This document shows positions 21,163 to 38,497 of a stretch of 64,000 nucleotides of DNA, one piece after another (within the stretch, counting starts at the first letter, position 1; every line of letters begins with the position of its first letter). The stretch spans positions 668 through 64,667 of the forward strand of contig CAJTZY010000006.1 of assembly GCA_910584085.1 (NCBI GenBank), written 5' to 3'. The notes beneath the pieces are model-generated. The model had not been told where the DNA came from. It saw only the letters and a list, made by a program, of their open reading frames with translations, and did not search any database. The position numbers were made by a program, and so were the translations under genes. The DNA is from an uncultured Bacilli bacterium (GTDB lineage Bacteria; Bacillota_I; Bacilli_A; RF39; UBA660).

Positions 21163-21182
21163 AATCAATTTGAATTTATGAA

Positions 21183-21209: not shown

Positions 21210-21229
21210 ATATAGAAAGAAGTGATAAA

Positions 21230-21944: not shown

Positions 21945-22608
21945 TTTAGAAGAGTCAAAATTGAAAAAACAAAGAAAGTTTAATGAAAACAGAGAAAAAG
22001 TTTTGCAGGAAAAAGAAAATCTTGTAAAAAAAATACAGGAAGAGTATAAGGATATGTTATTACCAACCTTAAAAGAAAAAACAAATGAAATAACAAATTT
22101 ACTTGTAGAAAAATTAAAGGCACGTGGAGATAAAGTAAACTCAATTGAAATATTATCGGTTATAGCAAAAAGAAGCCTAGTTGATGTTGTTAAAGGAAAT
22201 GCAAATTCCTATACACCACAAGAGATTATGATAGCATTTAATCTTTATATTCAAATGATAGACAAAATACAAGAATATAGAAATTTTCCTCCAACTGTTG
22301 AAAGTTTTTGTTTATTTTTGGGAATAAGTAGGTCAACTTATAACAATTGGTTGGTAGATTCAGATAGAAAAGATGCTATGGATTATGTACATTCTTATTT
22401 ATTAGGTGTATTAGCAAATGGTGGTTTAACAGGTGAAACAAAAGAAATATCAAGTATGTTTTTACAAAAGACAATGGGTAAGACAGAATTACAACAACCA
22501 ATTCAACATGAAGTAACAGTCAAAACTGATATTGACGCAATACAAAATCAATTAAGTGCATTAAAAAGAGATAATATTATAGAGGGAGAATTTGAAGAGA
22601 ATGAATAA
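21934..22608 (+). CDS. terS: terminase small subunit
   Basis: Central HTH-like PPTVESFCLFLGISRSTYNNW and the following ...SSMFLQKTMGK pattern are typical of Firmicute phage TerS. Size is 224 aa. Confidence 0.6.
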   Translation: MKANLEESKLKKQRKFNENREKVLQEKENLVKKIQEEYKDMLLPTLKEKTNEITNLLVEKLKARGDKVNSIEILSVIAKRSLVDVVKGNANSYTPQEIMIAFNLYIQMIDKIQEYRNFPPTVESFCLFLGISRSTYNNWLVDSDRKDAMDYVHSYLLGVLANGGLTGETKEISSMFLQKTMGKTELQQPIQHEVTVKTDIDAIQNQLSALKRDNIIEGEFEENE

Positions 22609-22771
22609 AGAAACTGGAAAAGGTATTAAATTTGAAAGAATAAGAAGAGTTACAGGTTATTTAAGTGGAGATGTATCAAGATTTAACAATGGAAAAAGGG
22701 CAGAGGAAAAAGATAGAGTAAAACATAATGGAATAAATGAAGTAAATAAAGAGGTAAAAGAAAGTGAGTAA
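22601..22771 (+). CDS. 56-aa stand-alone NrdD-type glycyl-radical domain protein
   Basis: Not in the ORF track. MNKETGKGIKFERIRRVTGYLSGDVSRFNNGKRAEEKDRVKHNGINEVNKEVKESE contains RVxGYL ... NxGKxxExxxRxxH, the C-terminal glycyl-radical signature of class III ribonucleotide reductase. Start overlaps the terS stop (ATGAATAA). Confidence 0.55.
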   Translation: MNKETGKGIKFERIRRVTGYLSGDVSRFNNGKRAEEKDRVKHNGINEVNKEVKESE

Positions 22772-22970
22772 AGTAGTAGGAGTTACAATAGGAACAAAAT
22801 CACCACATACAAAAGATAAAATATACTATTATACAACGGAAAAAGATTTGAAAAAAGGCGATGTAGTAGATATCAAAGTAGATACAGGTGGAACGCCAAG
22901 TGCAACAGTAGTAATACAAGATAGTCATAAAAAGTTCGATAGGGAATTAAAAAAATTAGATATTAAATAA
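22764..22970 (+). CDS. hypothetical phage protein (68 aa)
   Basis: GTG start overlapping the upstream stop. Confidence 0.4.
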   Translation: MSKVVGVTIGTKSPHTKDKIYYYTTEKDLKKGDVVDIKVDTGGTPSATVVIQDSHKKFDRELKKLDIK

Positions 22971-22980
22971 TATAAAACCG

Positions 22981-23009
22981 GAAAAAGTTTTGGGTTAGAA
23001 AAAGTTTTG
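22981..23009. repeat. direct repeat GAAAAAGTTTTG x2
   Basis: 22981-22992 and 22998-23009, at the left border of the reverse-oriented cassette. Confidence 0.6.
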
Positions 23010-23375
23010 CAATCTTTTATATATAATAGAGGTATATTATTTGCATATCTTTTTATTATATTGAATATTATAATTAGTCTTTAATAAACCGCTTTATTAG
23101 CTTAATAAAATATAAAATAATATAAATATACTATAAAATAAAACAAGCCTAAAAACGGCTTAAAATTGCAAATAAAAGGGTATTGTTTTTTATTAAAATA
23201 TAGTATATAATATAATTGCTTTTTGAAATTTGCTTGGATAAATCAAAAAAGATAAAAGCAATATAGAATTATGCCTAGTTAAATAAATAATCTATGTTAT
23301 TTTTTGAATGGTAAGCAACTGGGTATAATGAGTTATATTTGTATATCATTTTATGATATACCTCAAACAACACAT

Positions 23376-23400
23376 GAGGCTTAAATGCCTCGTTTTTTTT
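23376..23400 (+). terminator. Rho-independent terminator ending the terS transcription unit
   Basis: GAGGC-ttaaat-GCCTC followed by T8. Confidence 0.65.
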
Positions 23401-23489
23401 GTATATAAAAACTTTGCTATTTATTTTTTTTAGCAAAGTCACATAACCCACACCACATAGCAAGAGCTATTATAATTATAATTGCCATA

Positions 23490-24275
23490 TTATGCCTCCT
23501 TTTTAAGATTATCTAATATAATTTTATAATCTTTTGTATTGTATTTTTCATAACATTTTTTTAAATCTTTTTTAAATGTCTCTCTTGGAAATCTAGTTTT
23601 TAATACTGCTTTGTTTTGCCCTATATTTTCATTTATCATTTTTTCTAATGTATTTATAAAATTTTCTTTACTTGATTTGTCTGTTCTAGGTTTTCCAATT
23701 TGTTTCCCTTGAAGTCTTGCTTTTTCAATTCCCGCTTTTGTACTTCTAGAAACTTCCTCTATTTTTTTACATGCAACATAGTTTATAGCATTAAATACAA
23801 TATCACGTAAGAATTTGTATTCTAGTGTAATTGTTTCTTGTTTTTCGTTTGGAAATTTAGCACTTAGCATTTCATTATCTAAAATTATAACATTTATATT
23901 TTTTTCAGTTAGAAATTGCCATTCTTTTTTTGTATTATCCCAGTTTCTACCTAATCTACTTAATTCACTAACGATTAAATAGTCATTATTTTGTAGTAAG
24001 TCGTGTACTTCTTCGTATTGCTTACGATTTAGTTTTTTTCCTGTATATTTATCGCAATATATATAATCAATACATATTGTAATATTTTTATTTTTTGCCC
24101 ACTTATAAAGTTCTAATATTTGACGGCCAAAGTCTTGACATTCAGTACTAACACGGATGTATACATATAAATGACATTTATAATTATTATAAAATATGTC
24201 ATCAATTGTAAATACATCATTTAAACTCTCTTTATTTATAAAATTTATTATTTCTTGCTTATAATCTTTATTCAT
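23490..24275 (-). CDS. small serine recombinase (resolvase/invertase family)
   Basis: Catalytic motif LYVYIRVSTECQDFGRQ (nucleophile Ser) and LIVSELSRLGRN. Basic HTH-like C-terminal region. Confidence 0.8.
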   Translation of the reverse strand: MNKDYKQEIINFINKESLNDVFTIDDIFYNNYKCHLYVYIRVSTECQDFGRQILELYKWAKNKNITICIDYIYCDKYTGKKLNRKQYEEVHDLLQNNDYLIVSELSRLGRNWDNTKKEWQFLTEKNINVIILDNEMLSAKFPNEKQETITLEYKFLRDIVFNAINYVACKKIEEVSRSTKAGIEKARLQGKQIGKPRTDKSSKENFINTLEKMINENIGQNKAVLKTRFPRETFKKDLKKCYEKYNTKDYKIILDNLKKEA

Positions 24276-24672
24276 TTTCTACCATCTCCTTAAATTCATC
24301 AAGTGAATAATTTTCACGATCTAAATCATAAAAATATGTATAGTTTATTTCCTCTTTTAGATATTCAATGATTTTATCTAATACTTTTTCATTTACTTTA
24401 TAAATGACTTTATCTTTCTTTAAGTCATATTCTTCAATATCATATTTAAAATTAGAATATAAACTTTTAAAATTGTTATATGGTATATATTCTAATATAG
24501 TGCCATCTAGGCTTATTATTGTATTTGAATAACCATTTTCCCAATCTTGAACAGACATTCCATTGTTTTCATCAAATTGGCTTTCATATTCATTTATAGC
24601 ATTTTGTATTATTTCTTCTATTAATCTTTCAATTTTATTAATTTTATTTATCATTTTTGTATCTTTATCCAT
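24268..24672 (-). CDS. hypothetical acidic protein
   Basis: ORF-track ORF. Its stop overlaps the recombinase start. Confidence 0.5.
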   Translation of the reverse strand: MDKDTKMINKINKIERLIEEIIQNAINEYESQFDENNGMSVQDWENGYSNTIISLDGTILEYIPYNNFKSLYSNFKYDIEEYDLKKDKVIYKVNEKVLDKIIEYLKEEINYTYFYDLDRENYSLDEFKEMVENE

Positions 24673-24673
24673 T

Positions 24674-24826
24674 TTATAATATCTCCATTTTATTTAAACC
24701 ATTTCTATTTTTAAAATTTTCTATAGTATTTTTACATTCAATTTTATAACATAAATCTATTTTATCAAATAAATAATCTAGTAGTACAATTAAATCATTT
24801 GCATTTATTTTAACATATTTATTCAT
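24674..24826 (-). CDS. hypothetical 50-aa protein
   Basis: Not in the track. MNKYVKINANDLIVLLDYLFDKIDLCYKIECKNTIENFKNRNGLNKMEIL exactly fills the gap between two coupled genes. Confidence 0.4.
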   Translation of the reverse strand: MNKYVKINANDLIVLLDYLFDKIDLCYKIECKNTIENFKNRNGLNKMEIL

Positions 24827-25070
24827 ATTTTTTTAACACCTCCGTTTTTTCATTTTTTAAATATTCTATTATTTCATCAATTATTTTTTCACATTCTATA
24901 GGTCTCTCATCTTCGATAAGTAACTCTTCATATGCTATACTCTCTAAATAGTCCCAATCTTTATACTTTTTACTTTTGTGATGTGGTTTATTTCTATATA
25001 GTATATTATAAAAATCTTCTAATGAATAATTTTCTTTTAATTTATCCCAGTTTATCATTATTCTACGCAC
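24819..25070 (-). CDS. hypothetical protein
   Basis: ORF-track ORF in the minus-strand operon. Confidence 0.45.
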   Translation of the reverse strand: MRRIMINWDKLKENYSLEDFYNILYRNKPHHKSKKYKDWDYLESIAYEELLIEDERPIECEKIIDEIIEYLKNEKTEVLKKYE

Positions 25071-25294
25071 TCCTTTAATAAATCTAAAATAAATTCTTTT
25101 CTTTCTTTTATATAGTCTTCAATACTTTCTACTAATGATTTTTTATTATTATCATAAGTAACATAATCATTATAAATATATCTAATATTTCGCATATAGA
25201 TATCAAGCAAGATATCTTTATCATGTAAGAATTTTTTCTCTAATATCATTGATAAATAGAATTGTACCTCGTAAATATAACTATTATTAATCAT
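25058..25294 (-). CDS. hypothetical protein
   Basis: ORF-track ORF in the minus-strand operon. Confidence 0.45.
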   Translation of the reverse strand: MINNSYIYEVQFYLSMILEKKFLHDKDILLDIYMRNIRYIYNDYVTYDNNKKSLVESIEDYIKERKEFILDLLKECVE

Positions 25295-25306
25295 TTTTAA
25301 TACCTC

Positions 25307-25588
25307 CTAATTATAACTCATTTTACTTTGTATATCACTGTTTAAAGCAATTAAAGTATTGTTTGTAATTTCTATTCCTCTTGTTTCAACACCGATTTTT
25401 TGTCCTTTAAAATATAAATACCAAGTAATTTTATCAAAACTTTTAGCATAATAATAATCTGCGTCATCATATGGTCTAGGTTTATACATTTTATAACGTG
25501 GTATTTTACCATTATATACGTCTTGATACCAACTATATTTTTCATTTTCTTCTTTTAATAAATCTTGTATTTTATAACCATTTTTCAT
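25307..25588 (-). CDS. hypothetical protein (93 aa)
   Basis: Start trimmed to ATG 25588 (SD GGGAG) to remove the overlap with the upstream gene. Confidence 0.45.
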   Translation of the reverse strand: MKNGYKIQDLLKEENEKYSWYQDVYNGKIPRYKMYKPRPYDDADYYYAKSFDKITWYLYFKGQKIGVETRGIEITNNTLIALNSDIQSKMSYN

Positions 25589-25592
25589 ACTA

Positions 25593-25997
25593 TTAACACT
25601 CCCATTCAGTCCAATAGCTGTCGCCATTTCCATTGTCATACATTTCCAAATATTCTTCTTGTGTATAATGTTTATGTAAGCATTCATCACTACAATAGTA
25701 TTCTTCGCCATTTTCTATACAATAGCCTTGTGTCATTTCTTTGTGACATTCTGAACAAGTTCTTGTTTCTTTTTCTTCTTTATTTACTATATCTTTGTTA
25801 TCCCAATAATCTATTGTATAACCCATGCCATTGTCATAATTAATACATACAATAGTATCATCTTTTAAGTCTTTTAAATCTTCTTTTACTTCTTCTTCAA
25901 AGTCACTATCAATATTAACTGCGTTATTTTTCCAATAATCTAATATATCTTTTTTTGTTCCGAGCAATAATTCACCATTATCATAAATATTATTCAT
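25593..25997 (-). CDS. hypothetical protein with C-terminal CxxC...CxxxC zinc-ribbon-like motif
   Basis: ...RTCSECHKEMTQGYCIENGEEYYCSDECLHKHY... Confidence 0.45.
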   Translation of the reverse strand: MNNIYDNGELLLGTKKDILDYWKNNAVNIDSDFEEEVKEDLKDLKDDTIVCINYDNGMGYTIDYWDNKDIVNKEEKETRTCSECHKEMTQGYCIENGEEYYCSDECLHKHYTQEEYLEMYDNGNGDSYWTEWEC

Positions 25998-26235
25998 ATA
26001 TTACACCTCTTTCTAATAATTCATTTAATAATAAATCAATTATTTTATTTTGTTTTGTTCTTGTTGGTCGTTCGATTCTATTTATAATTTTAAAGTAATT
26101 GTCATAATAGGCTGTTAATTTTTCAATCCACCAAGTCGCACCACAATGCGATAATTTAATATCATAAGTTATTTTTAAATTGTGATTATTATCTTCTAAT
26201 ACCTCTATAATTTTTACTTGTTCTACTTTATCCAT
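25990..26235 (-). CDS. hypothetical protein
   Basis: ORF-track ORF in the minus-strand operon. Confidence 0.45.
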   Translation of the reverse strand: MDKVEQVKIIEVLEDNNHNLKITYDIKLSHCGATWWIEKLTAYYDNYFKIINRIERPTRTKQNKIIDLLLNELLERGVIYE

Positions 26236-26246
26236 TTTTACACCTC

Positions 26247-26792
26247 TTATCTATTAGCCCAATATCCCATACAATAGATATTTTTATTGTATTTCTTGAA
26301 ATATTTTTTTAATCTTTCTATATAATTGTTTATAAATTCGTCACATATTTTGTTATATTCTTGTATCTCTTCATTTGTCATATATCTTCTAAAATAGTTC
26401 TTTTTATTGTTATATTCTAAATCTTGTAGATAGTCAGTATAATAGTTTGTACTTAATACTGGCGATACTTGTACGTCACTTGTACAATAATGTTTTATAA
26501 AATATGGTTGTGTTTGTTCGTTATATTCATCTATTTTGTGATATTCACTAGTATAATTCATTTCATTATAATTTAAGAATAATTCTTCGGTCAATTTTGG
26601 TATTTCGTATTCATCATCGAAATATAAAGTTTTTGTTATACTAGGTTTGTTTTTAAAACTTAACACAAGTCCATCATTTGTTTTATAATATGTATATGTT
26701 TTTAAGTACCATTCAATCATATTTGGGCTTTCTTGCTCATTTTCTAACATCGATTTTACTTCTTCTAATTCCATTTTTTTCATATTTTTCAT
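26247..26792 (-). CDS. hypothetical Tyr/Asn/Glu-rich protein
   Basis: ORF-track ORF, first large gene of the minus-strand operon. Confidence 0.5.
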   Translation of the reverse strand: MKNMKKMELEEVKSMLENEQESPNMIEWYLKTYTYYKTNDGLVLSFKNKPSITKTLYFDDEYEIPKLTEELFLNYNEMNYTSEYHKIDEYNEQTQPYFIKHYCTSDVQVSPVLSTNYYTDYLQDLEYNNKKNYFRRYMTNEEIQEYNKICDEFINNYIERLKKYFKKYNKNIYCMGYWANR

Positions 26793-26887
26793 TTCCTCCC
26801 ATTATGTCATACTTGACATTTTTTAAAATTAAATATATAATGAGAGACAAGGAAAGGGAAACCTTTTCTTATATACAACTATTCTTA

Positions 26888-27088
26888 TTAAAAGAAGTAG
26901 TTATATATTAGTTTTTTTATTTGAGTTATCTTATGAGTTTCGCGACTGGAGATAACTCTTTTTATTTTTTCTATTAACTTTCTAAAATCTTTATTGAATT
27001 TATAAACAAATAATAACCATATTAACCATAATATTAATACTTGCATTAATGTTTCTAGTATTGACCATATTATTACCATTTCGATCAA
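26888..27088 (-). CDS. small membrane protein
   Basis: 66 aa. N-terminal hydrophobic segment IIWSILETLMQVLILWLIWLLFV. Confidence 0.4.
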   Translation of the reverse strand: MIEMVIIWSILETLMQVLILWLIWLLFVYKFNKDFRKLIEKIKRVISSRETHKITQIKKLIYNYFF

Positions 27089-27374
27089 CTCCTTTTTTTG
27101 TAGGTTTTCCCATTTCCTTATCTCTATATATTATTATACTCTTTTTTTTAAAAAAGTCAATACTTTTTAATAATTTTATCCTAAAAAATGCATTATTTTA
27201 TAAGGTAAATACTATGTATATTAATGTCTTAAAAATGTATATATTTATATTGCCATATTATTATATATTTTATTATTTATTTGCTATATTTTGATTGTTA
27301 TTTTATTGATTGATATATTTATATTATTTATTATAATATGGCTTATATATGATATATATAGTATTATCATTAGC

Positions 27375-27408
27375 ATATTATATTGGTATATTATATTGAT
27401 ATATTGAT
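27375..27408. repeat. tandem 13-mers ATATTATATTGRT (2.6 copies) within a ~700-bp gene-free, extremely AT-rich spacer
   Basis: atattatattggt / atattatattgat / atattgat. Surrounding sequence 27100-27560 is almost pure A/T with many short repeats. Confidence 0.6.
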
Positions 27409-27780
27409 TATATATTTATTTATTATTATTGCTTATTATTTATTTAAGAAATTAACAAAAGATAGTCTTTATATGCAAAACAAAATATATTATTATTTAA
27501 CACTATATTATTATAATTTTATAGTGTTTTTTATTATGCCATTATATAATTAAATAATTAATATTATATATTGAATTAACCTTTATTTTATAACAATTTT
27601 ACTATGTATGTTAACGGTCGTTTGCATACTTGACACCACCCCAACCCTATATTTTTAAAGGCATATAGGGGTGTTTTTACCTCTAAAAATCTATAAAAAA
27701 TAATAAAAGGACTATATAAATAAGCATAATTCATAAATAATCAAGCGAAAATGATTATTTTTTTATTTTGTTGTTAAAAG

Positions 27781-28021: not shown

Positions 28022-28345
28022 ATGGAGAAAGAAAAGTTAGACATACGATTTAGCAAACATGTAGAAAGAATTTTTGGAATTAAACTAACTAAATATGGCA
28101 AGTACAAAATACATAAATGGATAATTGATGAATTTGGCAGTATATATATGGCAAACAAAACATTAGACAATGATAGTTCAAGATTAGAATTTATTAGTGA
28201 CATGCTAAAACAAGAAAATTTAAAATTAGATGATATTTCAGATATAACTGAATTGTTACAAAACATAAAAAAAGAATTAAGAAAATTTAAACATAAATCT
28301 AAATATTGCCCATATTGTGGGAAAGAATTATCAAAAGAGGTGTGA
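28022..28345 (+). CDS. hypothetical protein with C-terminal zinc-ribbon motif (CPYCGKEL)
   Basis: First ORF of the rightward array. Confidence 0.5.
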   Translation: MEKEKLDIRFSKHVERIFGIKLTKYGKYKIHKWIIDEFGSIYMANKTLDNDSSRLEFISDMLKQENLKLDDISDITELLQNIKKELRKFKHKSKYCPYCGKELSKEV

Positions 28346-28346
28346 T

Positions 28347-28472
28347 ATGTTAAAAAAAATAGAAATAACGTTTTTAGGAATATTGATATTATTAATAATA
28401 TTCTTTGGATTAGGAATCGGTTTTGATAGATATGTATTAAATAATTGTGGATGTGAGGTACAAGATAAATGA
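28347..28472 (+). CDS. 41-aa membrane peptide
   Basis: Not in the track. MLKKIEITFLGILILLIIFFGLGIGFDRYVLNNCGCEVQDK. ATGA coupling to the next ORF. Confidence 0.35.
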   Translation: MLKKIEITFLGILILLIIFFGLGIGFDRYVLNNCGCEVQDK

Positions 28473-28666
28473 GATTATTTATAACGATAATGAAATACAT
28501 TTGCTTAAGTATATTAATATTTAATACATTATTCTTCGTATATTGTATATATGAAGGCAGAATTTTAACTATTATAACAAGTATAGTTAATGAATTTACA
28601 TTATATATTCAAACGATGATTTGGAATGACTTTTATGGATTAGAAAGTAGTGATATGCTGTGTTAA
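28469..28666 (+). CDS. small membrane protein
   Basis: ORF-track ORF, hydrophobic. Confidence 0.4.
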   Translation: MRLFITIMKYICLSILIFNTLFFVYCIYEGRILTIITSIVNEFTLYIQTMIWNDFYGLESSDMLC

Positions 28667-28950
28667 CATTACCAACAAAGAAAAAATGGTTTGATATGAT
28701 TAAATCTGGAGAAAAGAAAGAAGAATATAGAGAAATCAAACCTTATTACGATAGTAGATTTAAATATTATCTTGGCGGCTGGGAAATAGGTTTATTAGAT
28801 ATTAAATTTAGAAATGGATATTCAAAAAATAACCCATCAATAAAATGCAAAGTGGATATATCAAAAGGATATGGCAAACCAGAATGGGGAGCAGAACCAG
28901 GTAAATTATATTATGTTCTGAAAATATTAAGTGTAGAAGAGGTGAAATAA
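28660..28950 (+). CDS. ASCH-domain protein
   Basis: KKKWFDMIKSGEKKEEYREIKPYY matches the ASCH beta-barrel N-terminal signature. Confidence 0.55.
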   Translation: MLTLPTKKKWFDMIKSGEKKEEYREIKPYYDSRFKYYLGGWEIGLLDIKFRNGYSKNNPSIKCKVDISKGYGKPEWGAEPGKLYYVLKILSVEEVK

Positions 28951-29276
28951 TGAAAATATTAGGAATTGATGTAATTGAACCTATACCAAAACAAATAACA
29001 ATATATGAATGTCCGTATTGCACTAAAAAGTTTACGAATAAACATAGCTATTATAATCATATTTCAAAAAAATGGTGTTACAACTATGATATTAATTTTT
29101 ACAGGAAAAAAGCAGAATATGAAGCAAATAAAATTACAGAAGAAGAATACTACTTATGGCTTTTTGAAAATGATTGCTTAGATTATTTAGGATTTGATTA
29201 TGAAAAATTAGAGCAACTGAAAAATAAATTATCAAAACAATTATTTGAGAAAATAGAAAGGTTATACAATGAGTGA
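28950..29276 (+). CDS. C2H2 zinc-finger protein
   Basis: YECPYCTKKFTNKHSYYNH. Confidence 0.5.
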   Translation: MKILGIDVIEPIPKQITIYECPYCTKKFTNKHSYYNHISKKWCYNYDINFYRKKAEYEANKITEEEYYLWLFENDCLDYLGFDYEKLEQLKNKLSKQLFEKIERLYNE

Positions 29277-29694
29277 AATAATAGTTAAAAGTGTTAACTT
29301 ACAACAAGATAAAGTTGATAGATTAAATAATACAATTGAGATGAGAGATAACACTATAAAATATCAGCAAGACCAATATTTAAAATTATTAAGGAAATTA
29401 GATAATAAGGATCCGTTTGGGTTAAATAATTTACTATTTACTTATGATGAAATTATTGAAATTTTAAGAAAACAATATCATCCTTTAAAAGAATATATTG
29501 AAAGATGGTTTGGTACTTATCAAGATTTTATAGATAATGATGGATTATATTTTAGTGAAGATGGTATAGAAGTTGAAAAAGGTGATTATTGGTTAGTTAA
29601 TATAAAAACTGATTACGCTTGTAGACTTAAAAGCAAGGATAAATTAAATAGAAAAATATATGAACTAGAAAAAGATGGTGAATTAGATGATTAA
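29269..29694 (+). CDS. hypothetical protein
   Basis: Coupled ORF in the array; start overlaps the upstream stop. Confidence 0.45.
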   Translation: MSEIIVKSVNLQQDKVDRLNNTIEMRDNTIKYQQDQYLKLLRKLDNKDPFGLNNLLFTYDEIIEILRKQYHPLKEYIERWFGTYQDFIDNDGLYFSEDGIEVEKGDYWLVNIKTDYACRLKSKDKLNRKIYELEKDGELDD

Positions 29695-29956
29695 AGTAAG
29701 AGTTATGAACGAATATCAAATTGATGCATTATTAACAAGTGATATAGAAATAAATTATGATAATTTCTATAAAGATGATTTAGTATCAATGTTAAAAGTA
29801 TGTAGAGATAGATATAGAAAAAAAGACAGAGAAACAACCAATTTAAAACAAGCACTAAATGAAATAAAAGAAATTATACAACATTCAAAAGGCATGGGCT
29901 TTCAAAAAGAAAAAGATATTTTACAAATAATAGATAAAGTAGGAGATGAGAAATAA
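29687..29956 (+). CDS. hypothetical protein
   Basis: Coupled ORF in the array. Confidence 0.45.
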   Translation: MIKVRVMNEYQIDALLTSDIEINYDNFYKDDLVSMLKVCRDRYRKKDRETTNLKQALNEIKEIIQHSKGMGFQKEKDILQIIDKVGDEK

Positions 29957-30646: not shown

Positions 30647-30986
30647 AATAAATTTAAATGATAAATTTAGTGACATAATTATTAAATTATCAGAAGGAAA
30701 TCCAGGAGCAATGACAACATTATTTGAAATTATGAAAGTTAAAAAAAATGAAGAAATTTCATGTATTAGTACATTTTTAGTGATTGATACTATGGAATTA
30801 TATGGTAGTCATTTATATATGCTATGGAATGATTGCTGTAATAGAGATATAAATGAAACTTTAAATGTAATTAATAATTATCAATTAGGAAAAATTACTA
30901 ATATTGATATAAATGAAAGAATAAAAAATGTTGGATATGGTAAGTCATTTGCTGATTTATTAGAAAAGAGTGAAAGTAATGAATAA
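30639..30986 (+). CDS. hypothetical protein
   Basis: Coupled ORF in the array. Confidence 0.45.
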   Translation: MSKINLNDKFSDIIIKLSEGNPGAMTTLFEIMKVKKNEEISCISTFLVIDTMELYGSHLYMLWNDCCNRDINETLNVINNYQLGKITNIDINERIKNVGYGKSFADLLEKSESNE

Positions 30987-31167
30987 AGATGAACTACTAA
31001 AAATATTTGATTGGCTAGAAGAAAATGCTAATAAAAATAAATTACTATATTTTAAATTATTAGATAATAATCAAATAGGAGCGTATTTTAAAACAGACAA
31101 TCATCATTTTGCAGATTTTTATATAAGACCAATTTTACAGATAATTAGAGGTGATAAAGATGAGTGA
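30979..31167 (+). CDS. hypothetical protein
   Basis: Coupled ORF. ATG 30979 is preferred over the track GTG 30970. Confidence 0.4.
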   Translation: MNKDELLKIFDWLEENANKNKLLYFKLLDNNQIGAYFKTDNHHFADFYIRPILQIIRGDKDE

Positions 31168-31471
31168 AGAAATTGATATAAAAAACAAAATTGCTTATGT
31201 AGATAAGTATATAGCAGAAAATAATTGTGATGATTTAGTAGTAAAATATTTTGTTGATATTTTGAATTACATTTGTGAACTAGAAAATAAATTTTCTAAA
31301 CAAAGAAATCTATATAAGGAAACACAAGCAGATACTATTAATTTACAACAAAAAATTGCTGATTCTATTAATTTTTTAGATTTATTTATATCAGATGATA
31401 ATTTAAGTAAATATGATACATTAAAAATTTTGATGCACCAAAAGAAAATTTTAAAAGGAGAAGATAAATGA
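31160..31471 (+). CDS. hypothetical protein
   Basis: Coupled ORF. ATG 31160 follows AGAGGTGA. Confidence 0.45.
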   Translation: MSEEIDIKNKIAYVDKYIAENNCDDLVVKYFVDILNYICELENKFSKQRNLYKETQADTINLQQKIADSINFLDLFISDDNLSKYDTLKILMHQKKILKGEDK

Positions 31472-31713
31472 ATAAGTTAAAAATTAAAAAAATCGAAAAA
31501 TTGGGTAAATACTTATATATTTATATCAAAATACCATATTTTATTGGTTTTAAAAAAATATCTAAACAGTTAGCAAAGTATGAAGACAACGAGGCTTCTC
31601 TACATACATATATTGATATAAAAAGTAAATATGCAATACTTACTTATGTATTAAGGAATAAAGAAGATATATTGCCTTATGTTAATAACAGAAAGGTTGT
31701 AGAAGATGAATAA
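31468..31713 (+). CDS. hypothetical protein
   Basis: Coupled ORF (ATGA junction). Confidence 0.4.
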   Translation: MNKLKIKKIEKLGKYLYIYIKIPYFIGFKKISKQLAKYEDNEASLHTYIDIKSKYAILTYVLRNKEDILPYVNNRKVVEDE

Positions 31714-32071
31714 AATAGAAATACTAAGTTTATCTTATGGTAATTATGTAGCATTAGAAGATTATGAAAAAATACAACAAGAAAATAAATCATTAAGACA
31801 AGAAATAAAAATACATTCTAAAAAATCAAATGGTAGATATAAAGCAATTAAAATTTTAGAAAATCACATTAGAAAACTTAATCTAGAATGCCAAAAATAT
31901 TTTGATTTATTAATGAATAGAGATGAAGTTATTGATAAACTTATTGTAAATTGGAATTTTTTAGAAAAATATCTTGATGAAAACAAAATGGTATTAAATA
32001 ATCCTAGTATTTTTCAATTTTATTTAATACGAAAAGAAATCTTACAAAAATATAAAGGAGTAGATGATTAA
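31706..32071 (+). CDS. hypothetical coiled-coil protein
   Basis: Coupled ORF in the array. Confidence 0.45.
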   Translation: MNKIEILSLSYGNYVALEDYEKIQQENKSLRQEIKIHSKKSNGRYKAIKILENHIRKLNLECQKYFDLLMNRDEVIDKLIVNWNFLEKYLDENKMVLNNPSIFQFYLIRKEILQKYKGVDD

Positions 32072-32326
32072 ATGAGTGCTAAAGAGATGTTTGAGGAATT
32101 AGATTTTACTTTAATTAAAAATAATGAAATGATTTTAGAATATGAAAATCCTTATAATGAAACTATCTATTTTGATAAAAACGAAAAATATTATTCGTCT
32201 TATTGTCGTAATAATGAACACGATTTTGATGTTTATGCTGATGAAGCAATAATAATTAATATGAAATTACATAAAGCAATAAATAAACAAATAGAAGAAT
32301 TGGGATGGTTAAATGATAACAATTGA
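32072..32326 (+). CDS. hypothetical protein
   Basis: Coupled ORF (TAAATG junction). Confidence 0.45.
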   Translation: MSAKEMFEELDFTLIKNNEMILEYENPYNETIYFDKNEKYYSSYCRNNEHDFDVYADEAIIINMKLHKAINKQIEELGWLNDNN

Positions 32327-32501
32327 GACAAAAGAAACTGATGGAGCAGAATTAAAAATTTCTAAAGGAACACCACATATAACAATTTTATTAGGCATTG
32401 AAATGTTAATAGAGTCATTGATACAAGATAGTAGTGCCAATTTGAATATAGATGATATATTATTTGATTTGAAAAGAATATATGAAAGAGATAATAAATG
32501 A
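32313..32501 (+). CDS. hypothetical protein
   Basis: Coupled ORF in the array. Confidence 0.4.
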   Translation: MITIETKETDGAELKISKGTPHITILLGIEMLIESLIQDSSANLNIDDILFDLKRIYERDNK

Positions 32502-33001
32502 ATGAGGATTTATACGTTGTAAATAGTGATGGTGTTATAGTTGATACTATAGAATCAAATATAGGCTATGCTAAATTGTCAAGTGGAGATAGAGTATTAA
32601 GAAAAGGTACTATTCAATATTTATCAGATACAAAAGATATTAAGTATAGTTTTGCTAAAGTAAATACATTAGCTTGGAAAGAAATAGCACCTAAATACCC
32701 AATATTAAATATTTTGATACACTATATTGGTTATATGGATGGAATATTAACTTATAGAAATGGCAAAAATGTTCAAATGAAAGATATACCTAAATTATGC
32801 AATGTAAGTGAATCTACAACAAAGAGACAATTGTCTATGCTTGTTAAAGAAGATATAATCCATAAAATCAAGGATAATAAAACAACATATTTAAAATTTA
32901 ATCCATATATTGCTATGGTCGGCAAAAAAATAAATATTGAACTATACAACGAATTTAAAATGTCACAATGGCAAAATAAGATAGAGGTGTTTGAAAAATG
33001 A
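32498..33001 (+). CDS. winged-helix DNA-binding protein (RepL/MarR-like; tentative)
   Basis: wHTH-like segment MKDIPKLCNVSESTTKRQLSMLVKEDIIHKI. Size and layout resemble Firmicute RepL-type replication proteins, but this rests on pattern only. Confidence 0.3.
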   Translation: MNEDLYVVNSDGVIVDTIESNIGYAKLSSGDRVLRKGTIQYLSDTKDIKYSFAKVNTLAWKEIAPKYPILNILIHYIGYMDGILTYRNGKNVQMKDIPKLCNVSESTTKRQLSMLVKEDIIHKIKDNKTTYLKFNPYIAMVGKKINIELYNEFKMSQWQNKIEVFEK

Positions 33002-33204
33002 ATGACAAGATACAAGAAAATTTAAGACCTTTATATAATTGCTATGCTCAATATAAAATGTTATTCGATTATTATCAAGATAATAAATCAATGCGTTCAA
33101 AAGAAGAAATACAAGAGCGAATTGAATATTTAAAGAAAAATTCAAAGATAACACAACGTACAGAATTGGAAACATTGTTATGGATACTTAGTGAGGTGGA
33201 ATAA
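32998..33204 (+). CDS. hypothetical protein
   Basis: Coupled ORF in the array. Confidence 0.4.
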   Translation: MNDKIQENLRPLYNCYAQYKMLFDYYQDNKSMRSKEEIQERIEYLKKNSKITQRTELETLLWILSEVE

Positions 33205-33426
33205 ATGACTAAATTATCAATAAAACAAAAACAAACAATGGAAGCAATAGCATATTTCATAAATACAAATGGCTATCCACCAACAACAAAAGAACTATCT
33301 AAAATATTAAATACATCACCTAGTGCAGTATTTAAAAAACTAATGATATTAGAAGAAAAAGGTTATATAAAAACATCGATTGGAAAAGCAAGATCTATTG
33401 TTGTAATGAAAGGGTGGGAAGAATGA
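33205..33426 (+). CDS. LexA N-terminal-type winged-helix protein (DNA-binding domain only)
   Basis: LSIKQKQTMEAIAYFINTNGYPPTTKELSKILNTSPSAVFKKLMILEEKGYI matches the LexA DNA-binding domain. No peptidase domain is present. Confidence 0.6.
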   Translation: MTKLSIKQKQTMEAIAYFINTNGYPPTTKELSKILNTSPSAVFKKLMILEEKGYIKTSIGKARSIVVMKGWEE

Positions 33427-33635
33427 AACATAGAACATTACAAGAGTATAAAAAAGAAGTGTTTGATGAACTTACGGAAGAAAAGAAATTACAAGCAATG
33501 TATGATATGAGTAAACAATTATGTGATATTAGTGAATATATAAATAATCAAATAAATAAAAAGCGAGATCATCAGTATTCAGCTGGTTGGCAAATATTAT
33601 GGAAAATTAAAAAAATGCTAGGTGAAGAAGAATGA
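33423..33635 (+). CDS. hypothetical protein
   Basis: ATGA-coupled. ATG 33423 is preferred over the track GTG 33414. Confidence 0.4.
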   Translation: MKHRTLQEYKKEVFDELTEEKKLQAMYDMSKQLCDISEYINNQINKKRDHQYSAGWQILWKIKKMLGEEE

Positions 33636-34039
33636 AACAAAAAATAAAGCAGAGAATAATTAATTATGTTCAATCTAACTATGAATTATTAGATAAAAGC
33701 AAATTTATAAAAGGTAAGACATATTTAAATCATAGATGCCATTTGAATGCTGTTCAGGAAGCATATGATAATTCATCTAAAGTTTATTTAGTTGTATGTA
33801 TAGGTAATGATGAAGTGATTGTTCACTTTATAAATCAAGATTCAAAAGGAAATTATATTGATAATACATTAGGCTGGTATGGTAAAGAATTATATGATTA
33901 TTTCTTAATCAGGGAAGTTAACGAAAGTGAATATCATAAGATATGGAATTTATTAATTAATACTAAAAAAGCACTAATAAATACAAATTCTACTTGGCTG
34001 GAAAGAAAACTTAAATTTATTAAGGAAGATGATATTTAA
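33632..34039 (+). CDS. hypothetical protein
   Basis: Coupled ORF in the array. Confidence 0.45.
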   Translation: MKQKIKQRIINYVQSNYELLDKSKFIKGKTYLNHRCHLNAVQEAYDNSSKVYLVVCIGNDEVIVHFINQDSKGNYIDNTLGWYGKELYDYFLIREVNESEYHKIWNLLINTKKALINTNSTWLERKLKFIKEDDI

Positions 34040-34338
34040 TGCTTAATGTATCAGAATATATCCAACTCATTTTAAAAAAGAAAAAATGGACAAGCACCCG
34101 ATTGTGCCAAGAATTAAACAAAATAGAAGAACAACTAGGCGAATCCAGAACAACTGTACAAAATATATCTAATTATTTTCATGGGCAATGGAGTTTTCGA
34201 CCAAAAGTACTTGTTAAATATGAAAAGGCATTAGACTTGCCACAAAATACACTTGTATCAATGGTTGCTCCACCAAGCAGTAAAGAAGGGCAAAAAGAAT
34301 TGAAAGAAATAATGAAAAAAGTAGGTGAAATTAAATGA
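34039..34338 (+). CDS. HTH (XRE-like) protein
   Basis: LKKKKWTSTRLCQELNKIEEQLGESRTTVQNISNYFHG. Confidence 0.45.
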   Translation: MLNVSEYIQLILKKKKWTSTRLCQELNKIEEQLGESRTTVQNISNYFHGQWSFRPKVLVKYEKALDLPQNTLVSMVAPPSSKEGQKELKEIMKKVGEIK

Positions 34339-34502
34339 ATGGTTGGTTTTTAGCAATGATTATTATAAATGTTTTAAATATAGGAATTGCACTAGCAAAA
34401 CATGGTGAAACAAAAACGGAAGAATATAATGTATTTACTCAATTATTAGGTTCAGCAATAGGCTTAACAATTATTTATATGGCAATAAAGACAGGATTTT
34501 AA
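34335..34502 (+). CDS. 55-aa two-TM membrane peptide
   Basis: Not in the track. MNGWFLAMIIINVLNIGIALAKHG ... LLGSAIGLTIIYMAIKTGF. ATGA-coupled. Confidence 0.4.
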   Translation: MNGWFLAMIIINVLNIGIALAKHGETKTEEYNVFTQLLGSAIGLTIIYMAIKTGF

Positions 34503-34514
34503 GGAGGTAATTAA

Positions 34515-34721
34515 ATGAAAGACGTATTTGGAGCAATAGGAATAATTATTTTATCTATATTAGTAGTTTTACTATTAATTTCACTATCTAGTCTTATATT
34601 TTGGGGCTTAGGTAACTTTATTATATGGGTATTCAAAATTAATTATACGTGGACTATATGGCATGGTTTAGTATGTGCATTAGTATTTATATTATTGAAA
34701 GAGATATTTAATAGAAAGTAG
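34515..34721 (+). CDS. small two-TM membrane protein
   Basis: SD AGGAGG precedes the ATG. Hydrophobic. Confidence 0.5.
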   Translation: MKDVFGAIGIIILSILVVLLLISLSSLIFWGLGNFIIWVFKINYTWTIWHGLVCALVFILLKEIFNRK

Positions 34722-34728
34722 GTATTGT

Positions 34729-35079
34729 ATGAAGAAAATTATATTTGGAATAATAACTTGTTTAATTATAATATCTTGTACTGGTTGTATAGGGTATATG
34801 AATGAACAAACAAAAGAATGTGTAGTAAAAGATAAATGGATTAAAAGACCTAGTGGTAGTAATGATGAACTATATTTGATAAATTGTGGTGGTATAACAT
34901 ATAAAGTTTCAGACTTGTTATTTAAAGGTAAATTTAATAGTGCTGATATTTATGGTAATTTAGAAATTGGTAAAAAGTATAAAATAACTACTACTGGTTA
35001 TCGTTGGGGGTATTTTAGTGAATATCAAAATATAAATGATTATGAATTATTAGAGGAAGAGGTAAGAGAAAATGAATAA
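34729..35079 (+). CDS. putative lipoprotein
   Basis: Signal peptide with lipobox-like IIISCTGC. Confidence 0.5.
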   Translation: MKKIIFGIITCLIIISCTGCIGYMNEQTKECVVKDKWIKRPSGSNDELYLINCGGITYKVSDLLFKGKFNSADIYGNLEIGKKYKITTTGYRWGYFSEYQNINDYELLEEEVRENE

Positions 35080-35503
35080 TATATTAATATTTAGCCAAGA
35101 TGGACTAAGTGTATATCCATCAATGATAGGAATAGGACATAGACAAGAAATGCAAATAATTGGCGATAAAATAAAAGAGCAATTGAAAAAAAAGAATATG
35201 TCAGTAGAAGAGTTAATTGTTATTATAGGAAATAGTTATAGAAAAAATATTGAAAGAATACTTGAAAACCAAGAAATACCAACTCCAAAACTTATTGAAA
35301 GGTTAGAAAAAGCATTTGATGTTGAAAAGGACTTCTTTAAAGACAAGGAAACTTCAAATCTAGTATGTGTTCAAGGTGGTATTGTTATAGGTAAATATGA
35401 TACCAATGCAAGAGCAGAAGAAGTTAAAAATGAATTACAAAATAAGCAAAAAGAGGCACATCTAAATAACAAACAAGTTATTTATGAGATGCCAGAAAAA
35501 TAA
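35072..35503 (+). CDS. HTH-containing protein
   Basis: IKEQLKKKNMSVEELIVIIGNSYRKNIERILENQ resembles an XRE HTH. Confidence 0.4.
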   Translation: MNNILIFSQDGLSVYPSMIGIGHRQEMQIIGDKIKEQLKKKNMSVEELIVIIGNSYRKNIERILENQEIPTPKLIERLEKAFDVEKDFFKDKETSNLVCVQGGIVIGKYDTNARAEEVKNELQNKQKEAHLNNKQVIYEMPEK

Positions 35504-35521
35504 AGAAAGAAGGAATGAAAA

Positions 35522-35821
35522 ATGATAGTAAAAGCTTGCTATAAAGATAAAGATTTTGATTATTTTACAGATAAGGAAAATGGATTAGAAAGACACTATG
35601 GAGATATATTCGAGTGTTCTGATGATTTAGCGAATGAAAGAATCAAAAACAAATTTGTTAAGAAAGCAACAAAAGAGGAAGAAAAAGAATATTATGCTAA
35701 TCAAACAACAGTTGATGATGATATTCCAGTATCAACTGAACAAGAAGAACAACAAATGATTGATGACATAAATAATAATTGTACAGATGAATTAGAACAA
35801 TCAAATGGTGGTGAAGAATAG
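35522..35821 (+). CDS. hypothetical acidic protein
   Basis: ORF-track ORF with SD GAAGGAATGAAAA. Confidence 0.45.
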   Translation: MIVKACYKDKDFDYFTDKENGLERHYGDIFECSDDLANERIKNKFVKKATKEEEKEYYANQTTVDDDIPVSTEQEEQQMIDDINNNCTDELEQSNGGEE

Positions 35822-36690
35822 TGGGATCAATTATATTTAGTTTAATTTTAGTAGTAATAGTTGCTATATGTTTAGGAATAGGAAAAGCACCTGAGGATAG
35901 TGATTGGACTATGACTTGGAAATTTAGAAAAAGAATGATTTGGAGTCTATTGTGCCTATCAATTATACTATTTGGATGCTTTGCAACAATTAAAACAGGT
36001 GAAATTGGAATTAAAACTAGATTTGGTAAAATAGTAAATAGTACCAAAAATGAAGGAATCGTTTTTAAAAGTCCATTTGATAAAGTAGAGAAAATTAATA
36101 TTAAAGTACAAAAATATGAAAACAAAGATGTATTATCAACCTCTACAAAAGATATGCAAATAGTAAATAACATTAAAGTATCTATTAATTATCAAATTGA
36201 CGGAAACAAAGTAGTTGATTTATATAAAAGAGTAGGAACAGGTTATAAAGAAACGGTATTAGAACCAGCTATTCAGGAAACGATTAAAGGTGTTATTTCA
36301 AAATACACATCGGAGGAATTAGTTACAAAAAGAAGTGAGATTTCGCTTGATATAAATAATACACTAGATGAAAGAATTAAAACATATGGTATAAACAGTG
36401 TATCAGTAGCAATTAACAATTTTGATTTTAGTGAGGCGTACAATCAAGCCATCGAACAAAAAGCAGTATCTGAACAAAATGTATTAACAGCACAACAAGA
36501 ATTAGAAAAGGCTAAAGTCGAGGCAGAAAAGAAAGTAGTTGAAGCAGAGGCTACTAATAAAGCTAATGAATTATTAAAACAAAATGTTACTGATGAGGTA
36601 TTAGCAAAACAATTTATCGAAAAATGGAATGGTCAATTGCCAACCACTTATGCTGGTGATGACATATTAAAAATGTTTAATTTAAAATAA
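35821..36690 (+). CDS. SPFH/band-7 (prohibitin-like) membrane protein
   Basis: N-terminal TM, then an SPFH core (GEIGIKTRFGKIV ... TKDMQIVNNIKVSINYQI ... VLEPAIQETIKGVISKYTSEELVTKR ... INNFDFSEAYNQAIEQK) and a coiled-coil tail. Confidence 0.8.
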   Translation: MGSIIFSLILVVIVAICLGIGKAPEDSDWTMTWKFRKRMIWSLLCLSIILFGCFATIKTGEIGIKTRFGKIVNSTKNEGIVFKSPFDKVEKINIKVQKYENKDVLSTSTKDMQIVNNIKVSINYQIDGNKVVDLYKRVGTGYKETVLEPAIQETIKGVISKYTSEELVTKRSEISLDINNTLDERIKTYGINSVSVAINNFDFSEAYNQAIEQKAVSEQNVLTAQQELEKAKVEAEKKVVEAEATNKANELLKQNVTDEVLAKQFIEKWNGQLPTTYAGDDILKMFNLK

Positions 36691-36701
36691 AAATGTAAAA
36701 G

Positions 36702-36734
36702 TGTAGCACTCTCTTAAGGGAAATAGAGAGAGTG
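36702..36734 (+). promoter_or_regulatory. TGTAGCAC/AAGGGAA hairpin element, copy A (upstream of terL)
   Basis: TGTAGCACTCTCTtaAGGGAAAtAGAGAGAGTG. The 8-9-bp stem has a 3' arm that covers the SD, 5 nt before ATG 36740. Confidence 0.65.
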
Positions 36735-36739
36735 ATAAA

Positions 36740-38497
36740 ATGAGTTTAAAAATAGGCGAAAAGATAGAAATCAAAAAGCCACAAGAAAAAACGACCACTA
36801 TGTCACAGACTTTCTTTGATATAGTGGCTGTTTTAAAAAGTAATAAAGTTAGAGAAACGGATAAATTACAATGGTGTCAAAGTCTACTTGCAATATTAGA
36901 AAATTATTACAAAGAAAATGAACTAAAGTCAGTACAAAATGCTAAGAAGTATGCAATACCTGTGCTATATACTTTAACGGAGAAGAGTAGCATGGAAAAC
37001 ATGGCTCTCTTTTTTGATTATTATAAAAAAACATACTGTTTTTGTGCTAGAAGAGATTTTGAATGTTTTGTAGACTATATTGAATGGAATCAACCAAAGA
37101 AAGTATTAGCTAATCGCAGACAAGTATTAAAACCATACGTAGATGCTCTAAATAGAATAGCATTTGATGATAAATTACAATATATTATTGTTTCATATGC
37201 ACCCAGTATGGGTAAGAGTTACCTTGCAACATTATTTACAGCATGGGGATATGGTTTAAGTATAAATAATTCAGTAATCAGAATGTCATACTCTGACGAA
37301 CTCGTACTTGGTTTTAGTAGAACAGTAAAGGGTATTATATCAAGCCCTGAATTTGCGGAAATATTTCCTCTGTTTAAGTTGTATAATGGTAAACCGTTTG
37401 AAGTAGAAAGGGAATCAGACTGGAAAATAAAAAATGCCAATGTCCCTAAATCAAATCATATAGCACGTACCCGTAGTGGTTCTACTACTGGAGAAAGAGC
37501 CTCATTTGCAATTATATTTGACGATATGACAAAGGGAGCAGAGGAGGCTAATAGTGAGAGTATCCATAATGGAATATATGATAAATGGCTTACTGAATGG
37601 TGGAATAGACGTGATGGTCAAAAATGTAAATTTATATTTGTTGGAACTCAATGGACACCAGAAGATATATTGAATAGGGTTATAGAAGATAGAAACAAAG
37701 TATCGCCATTACAAGAAACGGATAATCCGTATGTTATGGAAAGTGAAGATAAATCAACTATAGTTATTCGTGTACCAATGTTAGATAAAGAACATAAAAC
37801 GACATGTCCCGAAGTATACCCACAAGAAATAGCAGAACAAATAGAACAAAATACAGATCCATTTCTATTTAGTTGCGTTTACCAACAAGATCCAATAGCA
37901 CTCACAGGGAGAGAATTAGCTTGGGAATGTTTACAAACATATATAGAACCACCAGAAGATTTAGAGTCATATTGTATGGCTGCTATCGACACTAAACGAA
38001 GAGGTAAAGATAATCTTAATATGTTTATATGTAAACCTGATGGGCATGGTAAACACTATTTATGGGATGCAATATTTACAAAAGAGCCTATGGATAAGTT
38101 ATATGATAAAATAATCGAAAAAATTATATTGCATCATATTACAACCTTAGTTATAGAAAACAATATTGATTTTTCATTAAAAACTTTATTAGAGGATAGA
38201 TTAAAGTTGAGAGGGATTTATTGGTGTAAAATTATAGAACATTATAATACACCTAAAAAAGAGAAAAGAATTATGGATATGTTGTGGCAAATACAAACAT
38301 TAATTATTTTCAAAGATAAATCTATTGTTAAACCAAATACTGATATAGGTAGGCTTATGGAAAATATTACAAAGTATTCATTTGATAAACCAAATGCTTT
38401 TGATGATGGACCTGATGGAAGTGCTTTATACGCTAGTGAAATAATAATGGGTAAGTCTGTATTACCAAAAGCGAAAGCTTGTCGTAGATTATTTTAG
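36740..38497 (+). CDS. terL: terminase large subunit
   Basis: 585 aa. Walker A-like SYAPSMGKSY and Walker B-like AIIFDDM, followed by a nuclease-sized C-terminal domain. Precedes the portal gene. Confidence 0.85.
   Translation: MSLKIGEKIEIKKPQEKTTTMSQTFFDIVAVLKSNKVRETDKLQWCQSLLAILENYYKENELKSVQNAKKYAIPVLYTLTEKSSMENMALFFDYYKKTYCFCARRDFECFVDYIEWNQPKKVLANRRQVLKPYVDALNRIAFDDKLQYIIVSYAPSMGKSYLATLFTAWGYGLSINNSVIRMSYSDELVLGFSRTVKGIISSPEFAEIFPLFKLYNGKPFEVERESDWKIKNANVPKSNHIARTRSGSTTGERASFAIIFDDMTKGAEEANSESIHNGIYDKWLTEWWNRRDGQKCKFIFVGTQWTPEDILNRVIEDRNKVSPLQETDNPYVMESEDKSTIVIRVPMLDKEHKTTCPEVYPQEIAEQIEQNTDPFLFSCVYQQDPIALTGRELAWECLQTYIEPPEDLESYCMAAIDTKRRGKDNLNMFICKPDGHGKHYLWDAIFTKEPMDKLYDKIIEKIILHHITTLVIENNIDFSLKTLLEDRLKLRGIYWCKIIEHYNTPKKEKRIMDMLWQIQTLIIFKDKSIVKPNTDIGRLMENITKYSFDKPNAFDDGPDGSALYASEIIMGKSVLPKAKACRRLF

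Follow-up and report, generated by a model that had tools for sequence, protein, structure and literature searches.

It is assumed in the annotation of phages and by programs that find prophages that the gene for the small terminase subunit (terS) lies beside that for the large one (terL). This rule fails in a widespread clade of gut phages, of which one member is a prophage in a stretch of 64,000 nucleotides (nt) from an uncultured Bacilli bacterium (assembly GCA_910584085.1, contig CAJTZY010000006.1, positions 668 to 64,667), the whole of which is here called the window. Several described systems bear comparison with this locus. The ArpU, LtrC and Alt types are known as activators of late operons in temperate phages of Gram-positive bacteria. 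Tandem direct repeats with an 11-bp periodicity that replace the -35 element upstream of a -10 are found in promoters of the PhoB/OmpR type (the pho box). Lambdoid phages have moron regions, such as the nin region and the region between Q and lysis with its stx and transfer RNA (tRNA) genes, and in phage P1 the Cre-loxP system is close to pac. RinA is an activator of the late operon in staphylococcal phages, which are likewise temperate phages of a Gram-positive host (PMC3152322).

The locus resembles RinA-type systems in having a small phage protein encoded at the end of the early/replication region and a candidate site at the putative promoter of terminase and virion genes. It differs in that there appear to be two target promoters, one for terS (site P1) and one for terL (site P2), 8.9 kb apart, and in that the site is a tandem 11-bp direct repeat which takes the place of the -35 and occurs in more than 13 specificity variants. 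The small protein, of 107 amino acids (aa), has no Pfam or PHROG match and by sequence is not a member of the RinA or ArpU families, but it may act alike. The likeness to PhoB/OmpR-type promoters is one of promoter geometry only, no response-regulator-like protein having been identified at this locus. As for P22 gp3 (PF16677; PDB 3p9a), it is the helical core of the 224-aa TerS-like protein (residues 93-204) that gives the best profile and fold matches; unlike gp3 the protein begins with an extension of 90 residues, for the most part a single long helix in the model, its score is under the Pfam cut-off and its gene is 14 kb from terL and not adjacent. Variable small genes and tRNAs at the early/late boundary, 3' of a RusA-type gene, recall the lambdoid accessory regions, but here the region lies between the terminase genes, its two-way layout is fixed, and it includes a conserved recombinase and a cluster of five DNA-binding genes. 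As with Cre-loxP in phage P1, the gene for packaging recognition lies within a few kb of a site-specific recombinase and a candidate site, but the recombinase here is of the serine and not the tyrosine type and its site is a candidate by sequence.

The window (G+C about 25%) contains one prophage of 50.4 kb (approximately 6633-57042), delimited by an 18-bp attachment (att) repeat. The features considered are collected in Table 1. The left arm carries an XRE repressor (8642-8992) and a Cro-like helix-turn-helix (HTH) protein (9518-9850), together with a DnaD-like initiator, a DnaB-like helicase, a Rad52-like protein, an MT-A70 methylase, an exonuclease, an HNH nuclease and SSB. Replication genes are confined to this arm and virion genes to the right arm, so that the TerS-like gene and TerL belong to one phage. 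The distance of about 14 kb between the two (22608 to 36740; 14.1 kb) had been pointed out in an earlier note on this DNA and is confirmed, as is the identity of TerL.

Table 1. Features of the prophage, with positions in the window; wHTH, winged HTH; ORF, open reading frame; DUF, domain of unknown function.
Feature	Position	Strand	Remarks
attL core TGGTGCGAGTGAAGGGAC	6633-6650	.	adjoins tyrosine integrase; exact 18-mer again at 57025
tyrosine integrase	6741-7838	-	phrog_1, 6e-71; the single integrase of the prophage
107-aa protein	18555-18878	+	unnamed family; last gene before P1; clade-conserved; candidate operator-specific regulator
P1	18881-18914	+	tandem 11-bp repeat GGGAGTGAAAA/GGGAGTAAA, 5 nt, extended -10 TGATACAAT; heads TerS unit
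RusA-like Holliday-junction resolvase	21230-21721	+	phrog_1770, 5e-26
84-aa protein	21690-21944	+	invariably directly upstream of, and overlapping, TerS-like gene
TerS-like gene	21934-22608	+	224 aa; probable P22-gp3-like small terminase homologue; several weak matches
NrdD C-terminal glycyl-radical mini-protein	22601-22771	+	56 aa; coupled to terS stop codon; PF13597
leftward operon	23275-27088	-	some 11 small genes, most of them seen in this phage only (ORF list, family comparison)
terminator closing TerS unit	23374-23400	+	hairpin 23374-23393, then T run; after NrdD mini-gene and 68-aa ORF
small serine recombinase	23490-24275	-	261 aa; Sin/Bin3-like resolvase family; last long gene of leftward operon
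conserved DNA element, about 100 bp	27610-27705	.	ACGnnCGT palindrome, ACCCnAACCCTAT, TTACyyyC, AAAAG; 110-175 nt 5' of P2
P2	27781-27814	+	identical 20-nt tandem repeat, 5 nt, extended -10 TGATATTAT; heads unit reaching TerL
variable cargo array	28022-32501	+	16 small coupled ORFs; only unnamed PHROG or DUF matches
conserved backbone	32498-35503	+	five conserved small genes, called DNA-binding; variable genes between at 33414-34039 and 34335-35079
167-aa wHTH	32498-33001	+	GntR/MarR-type appearance; profile matched only HTH regulators
68-aa protein	32998-33204	+	backbone
LexA-type wHTH	33205-33426	+	PF01726, 1e-14
99-aa backbone protein	34039-34338	+	profile against PDB: nothing significant
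XRE-HTH, 143 aa	35072-35503	+	fold matches all transcription regulators
99-aa ORF and SPFH/Band-7 protein	35522-36690	+	wedged between XRE gene and TerL; SPFH 35821-36690, PF01145, 2e-31
large terminase TerL	36740-38497	+	phrog_38, 8e-50
portal	38727-40301	+	right arm, downstream of TerL
attR core TGGTGCGAGTGAAGGGAC	57025-57042	.	3' end of tRNA-Leu(tag)

Relatives were drawn from IMG/VR (10 loci found by the TerS-like gene, 62 by TerL; 20 records, 12 of them at least 90% complete, were searched with a profile of the TerS-like gene), from metagenome-assembled genomes of uncultured Bacilli and Clostridia in the guts of mouse, rabbit, human, goat and yak (14 loci) and, via exact-protein look-ups, from 8 additional contigs. 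The gap was 5.8-14 kb in every readable relative, the smallest being 5.8 kb in L079. All 12 IMG/VR relatives that are at least 90% complete contain the TerS-like gene, with gaps of 8.5-14 kb, and five of these carry direct terminal repeats and have a length of 44.5-49.5 kb with both genome parts included. In nine IMG/VR contigs that were found by TerS and TerL searches alike the genes are 10-14 kb apart, and the same order was seen in the 14 loci and 8 contigs, even at 32-40% identity of the TerS-like protein. This common order runs from the 84-aa gene and the TerS-like gene to a convergent serine recombinase that ends a leftward operon, and then through a divergent intergenic region to a rightward unit closing with five conserved small genes and TerL. 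Among the relatives examined, down to 32% TerS identity, there was neither a terS adjacent to terL nor an empty site. On this comparison the separation of terS and terL is ancestral and inherited and not a recent insertion, and the idea put forward in the earlier note, that accessory DNA had been inserted between normally adjacent genes, does not hold. The note had allowed for relatives in which the same order was that of an ancestral region with known functions, and half of this, the ancestral order, was found. A probability of roughly 70% is given to the full explanation, developed below, in which the genomes of an uncultured clade of temperate phages of the siphovirus-like kind, from small-genome gut Bacilli, are normally laid out in this way. 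Near-identity searches with DNA and with the TerS protein found no match among cultured phages, the identity of TerL to its counterparts in cultured phages stays below 27% (at most 26%), and literature searches found no published description of this gene layout.

The same data bear on the suggestion that the accessory DNA arrived recently, or that there are two elements in tandem, with a satellite from integrase to TerS carrying its own small terminase next to a helper prophage. Satellites like the Staphylococcus aureus pathogenicity islands (SaPI) encode an integrase and replication functions and, towards the right end, a terS, and the left part here is about 16 kb long. A single att pair nevertheless encloses the whole 50.4 kb and not a satellite of the SaPI kind or of that of the phage-inducible chromosomal islands (PICI), neither an integrase nor replication genes occur in the right part, the complete relatives of 44.5-49.5 kb with terminal repeats hold both parts, and the order is the same in all relatives, which leaves this suggestion barely credible.

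The identity of the small terminase was approached in several ways. The 224-aa protein matches PHROG 606 'terminase small subunit' at 1.4e-7, and a relative 62% identical to it is named 'DNA-packaging protein small subunit' in nr (one source). Its AlphaFold model has a predicted local distance difference test score (pLDDT) of 70, and the best fold match in PDB is the P22 small terminase 3p9a, with a probability of 0.9 but an E-value of 0.5 and a template modelling (TM) score of 0.47. In BFVD, which holds predicted viral structures, the top matches, the best at E 2.5e-4, were nearly all to small terminases or to packaging proteins of the gp3 type, and tblastn gave weak matches at chance level that landed on annotated terS or packaging genes. 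A profile of the family searched against PDB gave nothing significant and no terminase likeness. No single line is strong and all are concordant, and from sequence and model together the protein is probably a TerS homologue of the gp3 type; presumably it also acts as the working TerS.

A rival view is that the 224-aa protein is not a working TerS and that a DNA-binding protein next to TerL serves instead, most likely the 143-aa XRE-HTH protein, which would make terS and terL effectively adjacent. Of 65 TerL loci 55 have the 143-aa gene, which occupies the classical position of terS, no more than 60 nt from the TerL match in nine relatives (the closest at 12 nt), with the two ORFs 2 nt apart in L033. 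Many small terminases have an N-terminal HTH, and against gp3 the 224-aa protein stays under the curated threshold of Pfam. On the other hand the model of the 143-aa protein (pLDDT 92) is an HTH of the C-protein/SinR type in a small alpha/beta domain with fold matches to regulators and to no terminase, its profile matches are to Cro, C-protein or SinR-type regulators only, and the 167-aa and 99-aa proteins are also without TerS likeness. The gp3-like gene, by contrast, is found throughout the clade, and it is favoured as TerS by six weak lines that are independent of one another. The rival view appears improbable.

The question of how packaging genes are coordinated across the gap, raised in the earlier note, now has a concrete candidate answer in the twin sites P1 and P2. 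The perfect 20-mer GGGAGTGAAAAGGGAGTAAA has exactly two copies in the window (18881 and 27781), where 0 are expected by chance. The 20-mer is made up of an 11-bp direct repeat in tandem; at both places the extended -10 TGATAnnnT follows 5 nt downstream, and the repeat spans roughly -40 to -21, that is the -35 region. P1 follows the stop codon of the last early gene at a distance of 2 nt. In relatives the pair of sites is found at both syntenic positions, the repeat differing between phages but matching within each phage. This match was seen in every locus that could be read at both places, namely 27 loci and the window (readable pairs in L001-L010, L073, L074, L076, L077, L081, L082, L084-L086, L090, L091 and L093-L097), some of which are near-identical phages. 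There are more than 13 different repeat sequences (GCCAGT, GTCAGT, GATAGT, GTGTAGT, TTAGAGT and CGGAGT, for example, and also GTTCAGT, TTGTGCT, CACAGT, GTAAGT, ACCAGT and CTATAGT), with a constant spacing between repeat and TGATA. Coordinated change at two sites 8-9 kb apart points to a shared sequence-specific factor and is hard to explain otherwise. From their sequence we infer that P1 and P2 are promoters or operators, and most likely one sequence-specific protein switches both units together, thereby coordinating terS and terL.

In the proposed explanation the virion and packaging genes would be divided between two rightward transcription units. The first would run from P1 via the tRNA/ROOL island and the genes for the RusA-like, 84-aa, TerS and NrdD mini-proteins to the terminator at 23374-23400, and the second from P2 via the cargo slot and the five conserved genes into TerL, the portal and onward. 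Between them would lie the leftward operon, with its own near-consensus match to a sigma-70-type promoter and ending in the serine recombinase. One factor, for which the 107-aa protein is the best candidate, would act at both repeats, as an activator or a repressor alike.

The gene for the 107-aa protein stands immediately before P1. The protein found no family match in Pfam, PHROG or PDB. Near its C-terminus is a hypervariable stretch of six residues (ATPSKI in the window) which, in a set of 21 phages that includes close relatives, is correlated with the operator half-site (Mantel r 0.36, p 2e-4), whereas for the rest of the protein r is 0.11 (p 0.08); a partial Mantel test of the stretch gave r 0.35 (p 2e-4). 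Operator types were also forecast from the stretch before new loci were retrieved, and NGTTQI with GTGTAGT, FTERAI with GTTCAGT and SSTxxx with TTAGAGT all proved to be as forecast, while TD and VD stretches go with related C-rich half-sites. None of the five TerL-adjacent conserved genes tracks operator type (phages with TAC against those with GTC), and a comparison of all ORFs between two distant phages that share the GATAGT repeat gave no informative candidate. The 107-aa protein is the best candidate for the factor that reads the operator, and the covariation of stretch and operator is probably the explanation of the co-regulation of terS and terL. The wider proposal, that the protein founds an undescribed family of phage regulators in which the six-residue stretch reads the tandem 11-bp operator, with more than 13 co-diversified specificity classes and a private two-lock late regulon, is tentative and is given somewhat less than even odds. 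Were it true, the packaging machinery of each phage would be switched on only by its own regulator, which would shield relatives resident in the same host from one another and might restrict hijack by satellites.

Several points weigh against the explanation as a whole. The identity of TerS is built on weak or sub-threshold matches, that to Pfam GP3_package (PF16677) reaching 23.1 bits against a curated cut-off of 29.4. A sigma-70-like match, TTGAAT-17-TATAAT at 21170-21198 just 5' of the RusA-like gene, could be a second, independent start for RusA and TerS. In L084 a third copy of the tandem operator of that phage lies at 311-330, in the early lysis-lysogeny switch region, and this would fit a repressor equally with an activator. 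No DNA-binding domain can be recognised by sequence in the 107-aa protein. The six-residue stretch was selected after inspection of the data and is encoded about 50 nt from P1, so that linkage may yield part of the signal.

Operator-like repeats in relatives are of some interest in themselves. The third copy in L084 hints at the same factor acting in the early switch region, and in L017 (20064) and L028 (17918) a tandem repeat with the TGATA spacing was seen inside the tail module, 3' of the homologue of 45396-45776, where it may be a third promoter.

The unit headed by P1 has the order tRNA-Met, ROOL RNA, RusA-like gene, 84-aa gene, TerS-like gene, NrdD mini-gene and a 68-aa ORF. The NrdD-like mini-gene and the terminator behind it, both named in the earlier note, are present (PF13597 positions 532-562, 7e-8, with the motif RVTGYL; hairpin and T run), and a minus-strand terminator-like site at 23162-23144 opposes the latter. 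The mini-protein keeps 75-87% identity in relatives with a TerS-like protein of only 36-68% identity, which implies a strong constraint; it resembles the spare-part glycyl-radical proteins of the GrcA/YfiD kind. Downstream of P1, at 19011-21200, is a gene-free RNA island with tRNA-Met, a ROOL RNA (172.7 bits) and a sub-threshold tRNA-like match at 21068-21159, and an island of this kind, of about 3 kb, is also found in relatives. The ROOL RNA would be co-transcribed with the small terminase from P1, a predicted promoter. An Rfam scan of 19600-21300 gave nothing new.

The leftward operon has its near-consensus promoter match at 27160-27133. Its serine recombinase, recognised in the earlier note, is confirmed for the gene at 23490-24275 (PF00239, 1.6e-20, 74 bits against a cut-off of 23.3; catalytic motif YIRVST at residues 38-43; Sin and Bin3 as nearest solved structures) but not for the 181-aa ORF at 26247-26792. 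Upstream of the operon is the AT-rich spacer that had also been noted (27.1-28.0 kb, GC 0.20), within which is the conserved element of about 100 bp, present once per locus in 33 loci and conserved at the nucleotide level. Its alignment showed no conserved RNA structure; it may serve as a site for a recombinase or for packaging, or as a platform for regulators, and with its ACGnnCGT palindrome it is the only candidate res or inversion site for the recombinase.

Two further readings involve this recombinase. In one the interval goes back to a separate mobile element, with the recombinase on board, which inserted itself between terS and terL in the clade's common ancestor and was domesticated later, P2 being a copy of the late promoter that rescued terL. 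The recombinase is constantly at the left edge, beside the TerS unit, the element of about 100 bp, a possible recombination site, lies between the divergent units, and two copies of one promoter are the expected trace of such a rescue. Against this are that no relative has an adjacent terS-terL or an empty site, even at 32% TerS identity, that no repeats flanking the interval were seen and that the five TerL-adjacent genes are as conserved as TerL. Such an origin is unlikely, though worth keeping in view; it concerns how the interval arose and is compatible with the two-unit explanation. In the other reading the recombinase flips the leftward operon, which would be an invertible cassette; the enzyme does match PHROG 125 'DNA invertase', and AT-rich imperfect inverted repeats (73% complementary) lie at 23105-23155 and 27289-27339. 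These repeats are of low complexity and at the level expected by chance, as were all the inverted repeats seen around the recombinase and in the tail region, no flipped copy was seen, the orientation of the recombinase being constant in 34/34 loci, and no invertible segment was found in the tail-fibre region either. An invertible cassette is thus very improbable.

The divergent end of the operon holds an arrangement of its own. A protein of 66 aa, which has a single hydrophobic helix and a basic tail, is encoded on the minus strand at 26888-27088, and its homologues open the leftward operon in several relatives. A perfect promoter match (TTGACA-17-TATAAT, 26813-26841, plus strand) opposes the gene and would yield an antisense RNA, structured (z -4.1) and about 120 nt long, predicted to end in a hairpin and T run near 26921-26965 and to overlap the 3' end of the gene. 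A type I toxin-antitoxin pair at 26813-27088 is possible.

Beyond P2 about 28 rightward ORFs, overlapping or abutting, occupy 28022-36690, in good agreement with the thirty or so coupled ORFs of the earlier note, and no terminator-like site was found on the plus strand between 28022, in the P2 unit, and TerL at 36740. Most of the 16 cargo ORFs (15) have no homologue in any related locus. The five backbone genes occur in 42-58 of 65 TerL loci and are colinear in 65/65, while the 99-aa ORF and SPFH pair was seen in no more than 10-11 of 38 loci. In these 38 loci taken together the interval contains 907 ORFs in 347 families, of which 223 are singletons and five occur in more than 20 loci, counts which come from naive ORF calling and include some spurious ORFs. 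A few widespread families with many singletons describe a constant scaffold with fast-turning cargo, and on the sequence comparison the interval is in part a conserved backbone and not accessory DNA alone. In many relatives P2 is 220-430 nt 5' of the 167-aa gene, and in the window that slot is filled by the 16 cargo ORFs. The cargo slot after P2 in L093 (16383-17727) has two sigma-70-like genes (matches to region 2 and region 4) and a Dam-family gene (PF05869), which shows how much the cargo can differ.

The description in the earlier note of a variable hot spot of mostly unrecognisable small genes is upheld by these counts, and its LexA-type wHTH, XRE HTH and SPFH protein were all matched. 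Its ASCH domain had no match among the 20 ORFs of the forward array scanned with Pfam (five of 51-81 aa were outside the scan), and the C2H2 zinc finger reached 22 bits against the 27 needed. The expectation that defence genes accumulate here was not borne out by a PADLOC 2.0 scan of the ten largest unassigned proteins of the interval, in which no defence family was matched at E < 0.001 and there was one chance-level match, to REase_II, at 0.0017. Nor does the array look like a set of integron-like cassettes, as there are no repeats between the genes and the ORFs overlap or abut.

The split layout has practical consequences, since without knowledge of it terS may be overlooked or a prophage cut in two. 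The twin covarying operators provide a testable model of how two distant packaging genes could be kept in step, and the candidate new regulator family, with its many natural specificities, could serve as a source of orthogonal switches. The fixed cargo slot 3' of P2 is a defined place in which to seek genes for host takeover or counter-defence in phages of the poorly studied small-genome Bacilli.

Two further observations were made in the right arm. Between the portal and the next gene of the virion module (40294-40667) are a skipping-rope RNA (43 bits), a tRNA-Thr(tgt) and a long-arm tRNA with the anticodon ACT. Further downstream, at 49231-49650, a lone 139-aa ORF on the minus strand lies between a 1134-aa ORF (45823-49227) and the next presumed tail ORF, and the GC skew falls to zero there.

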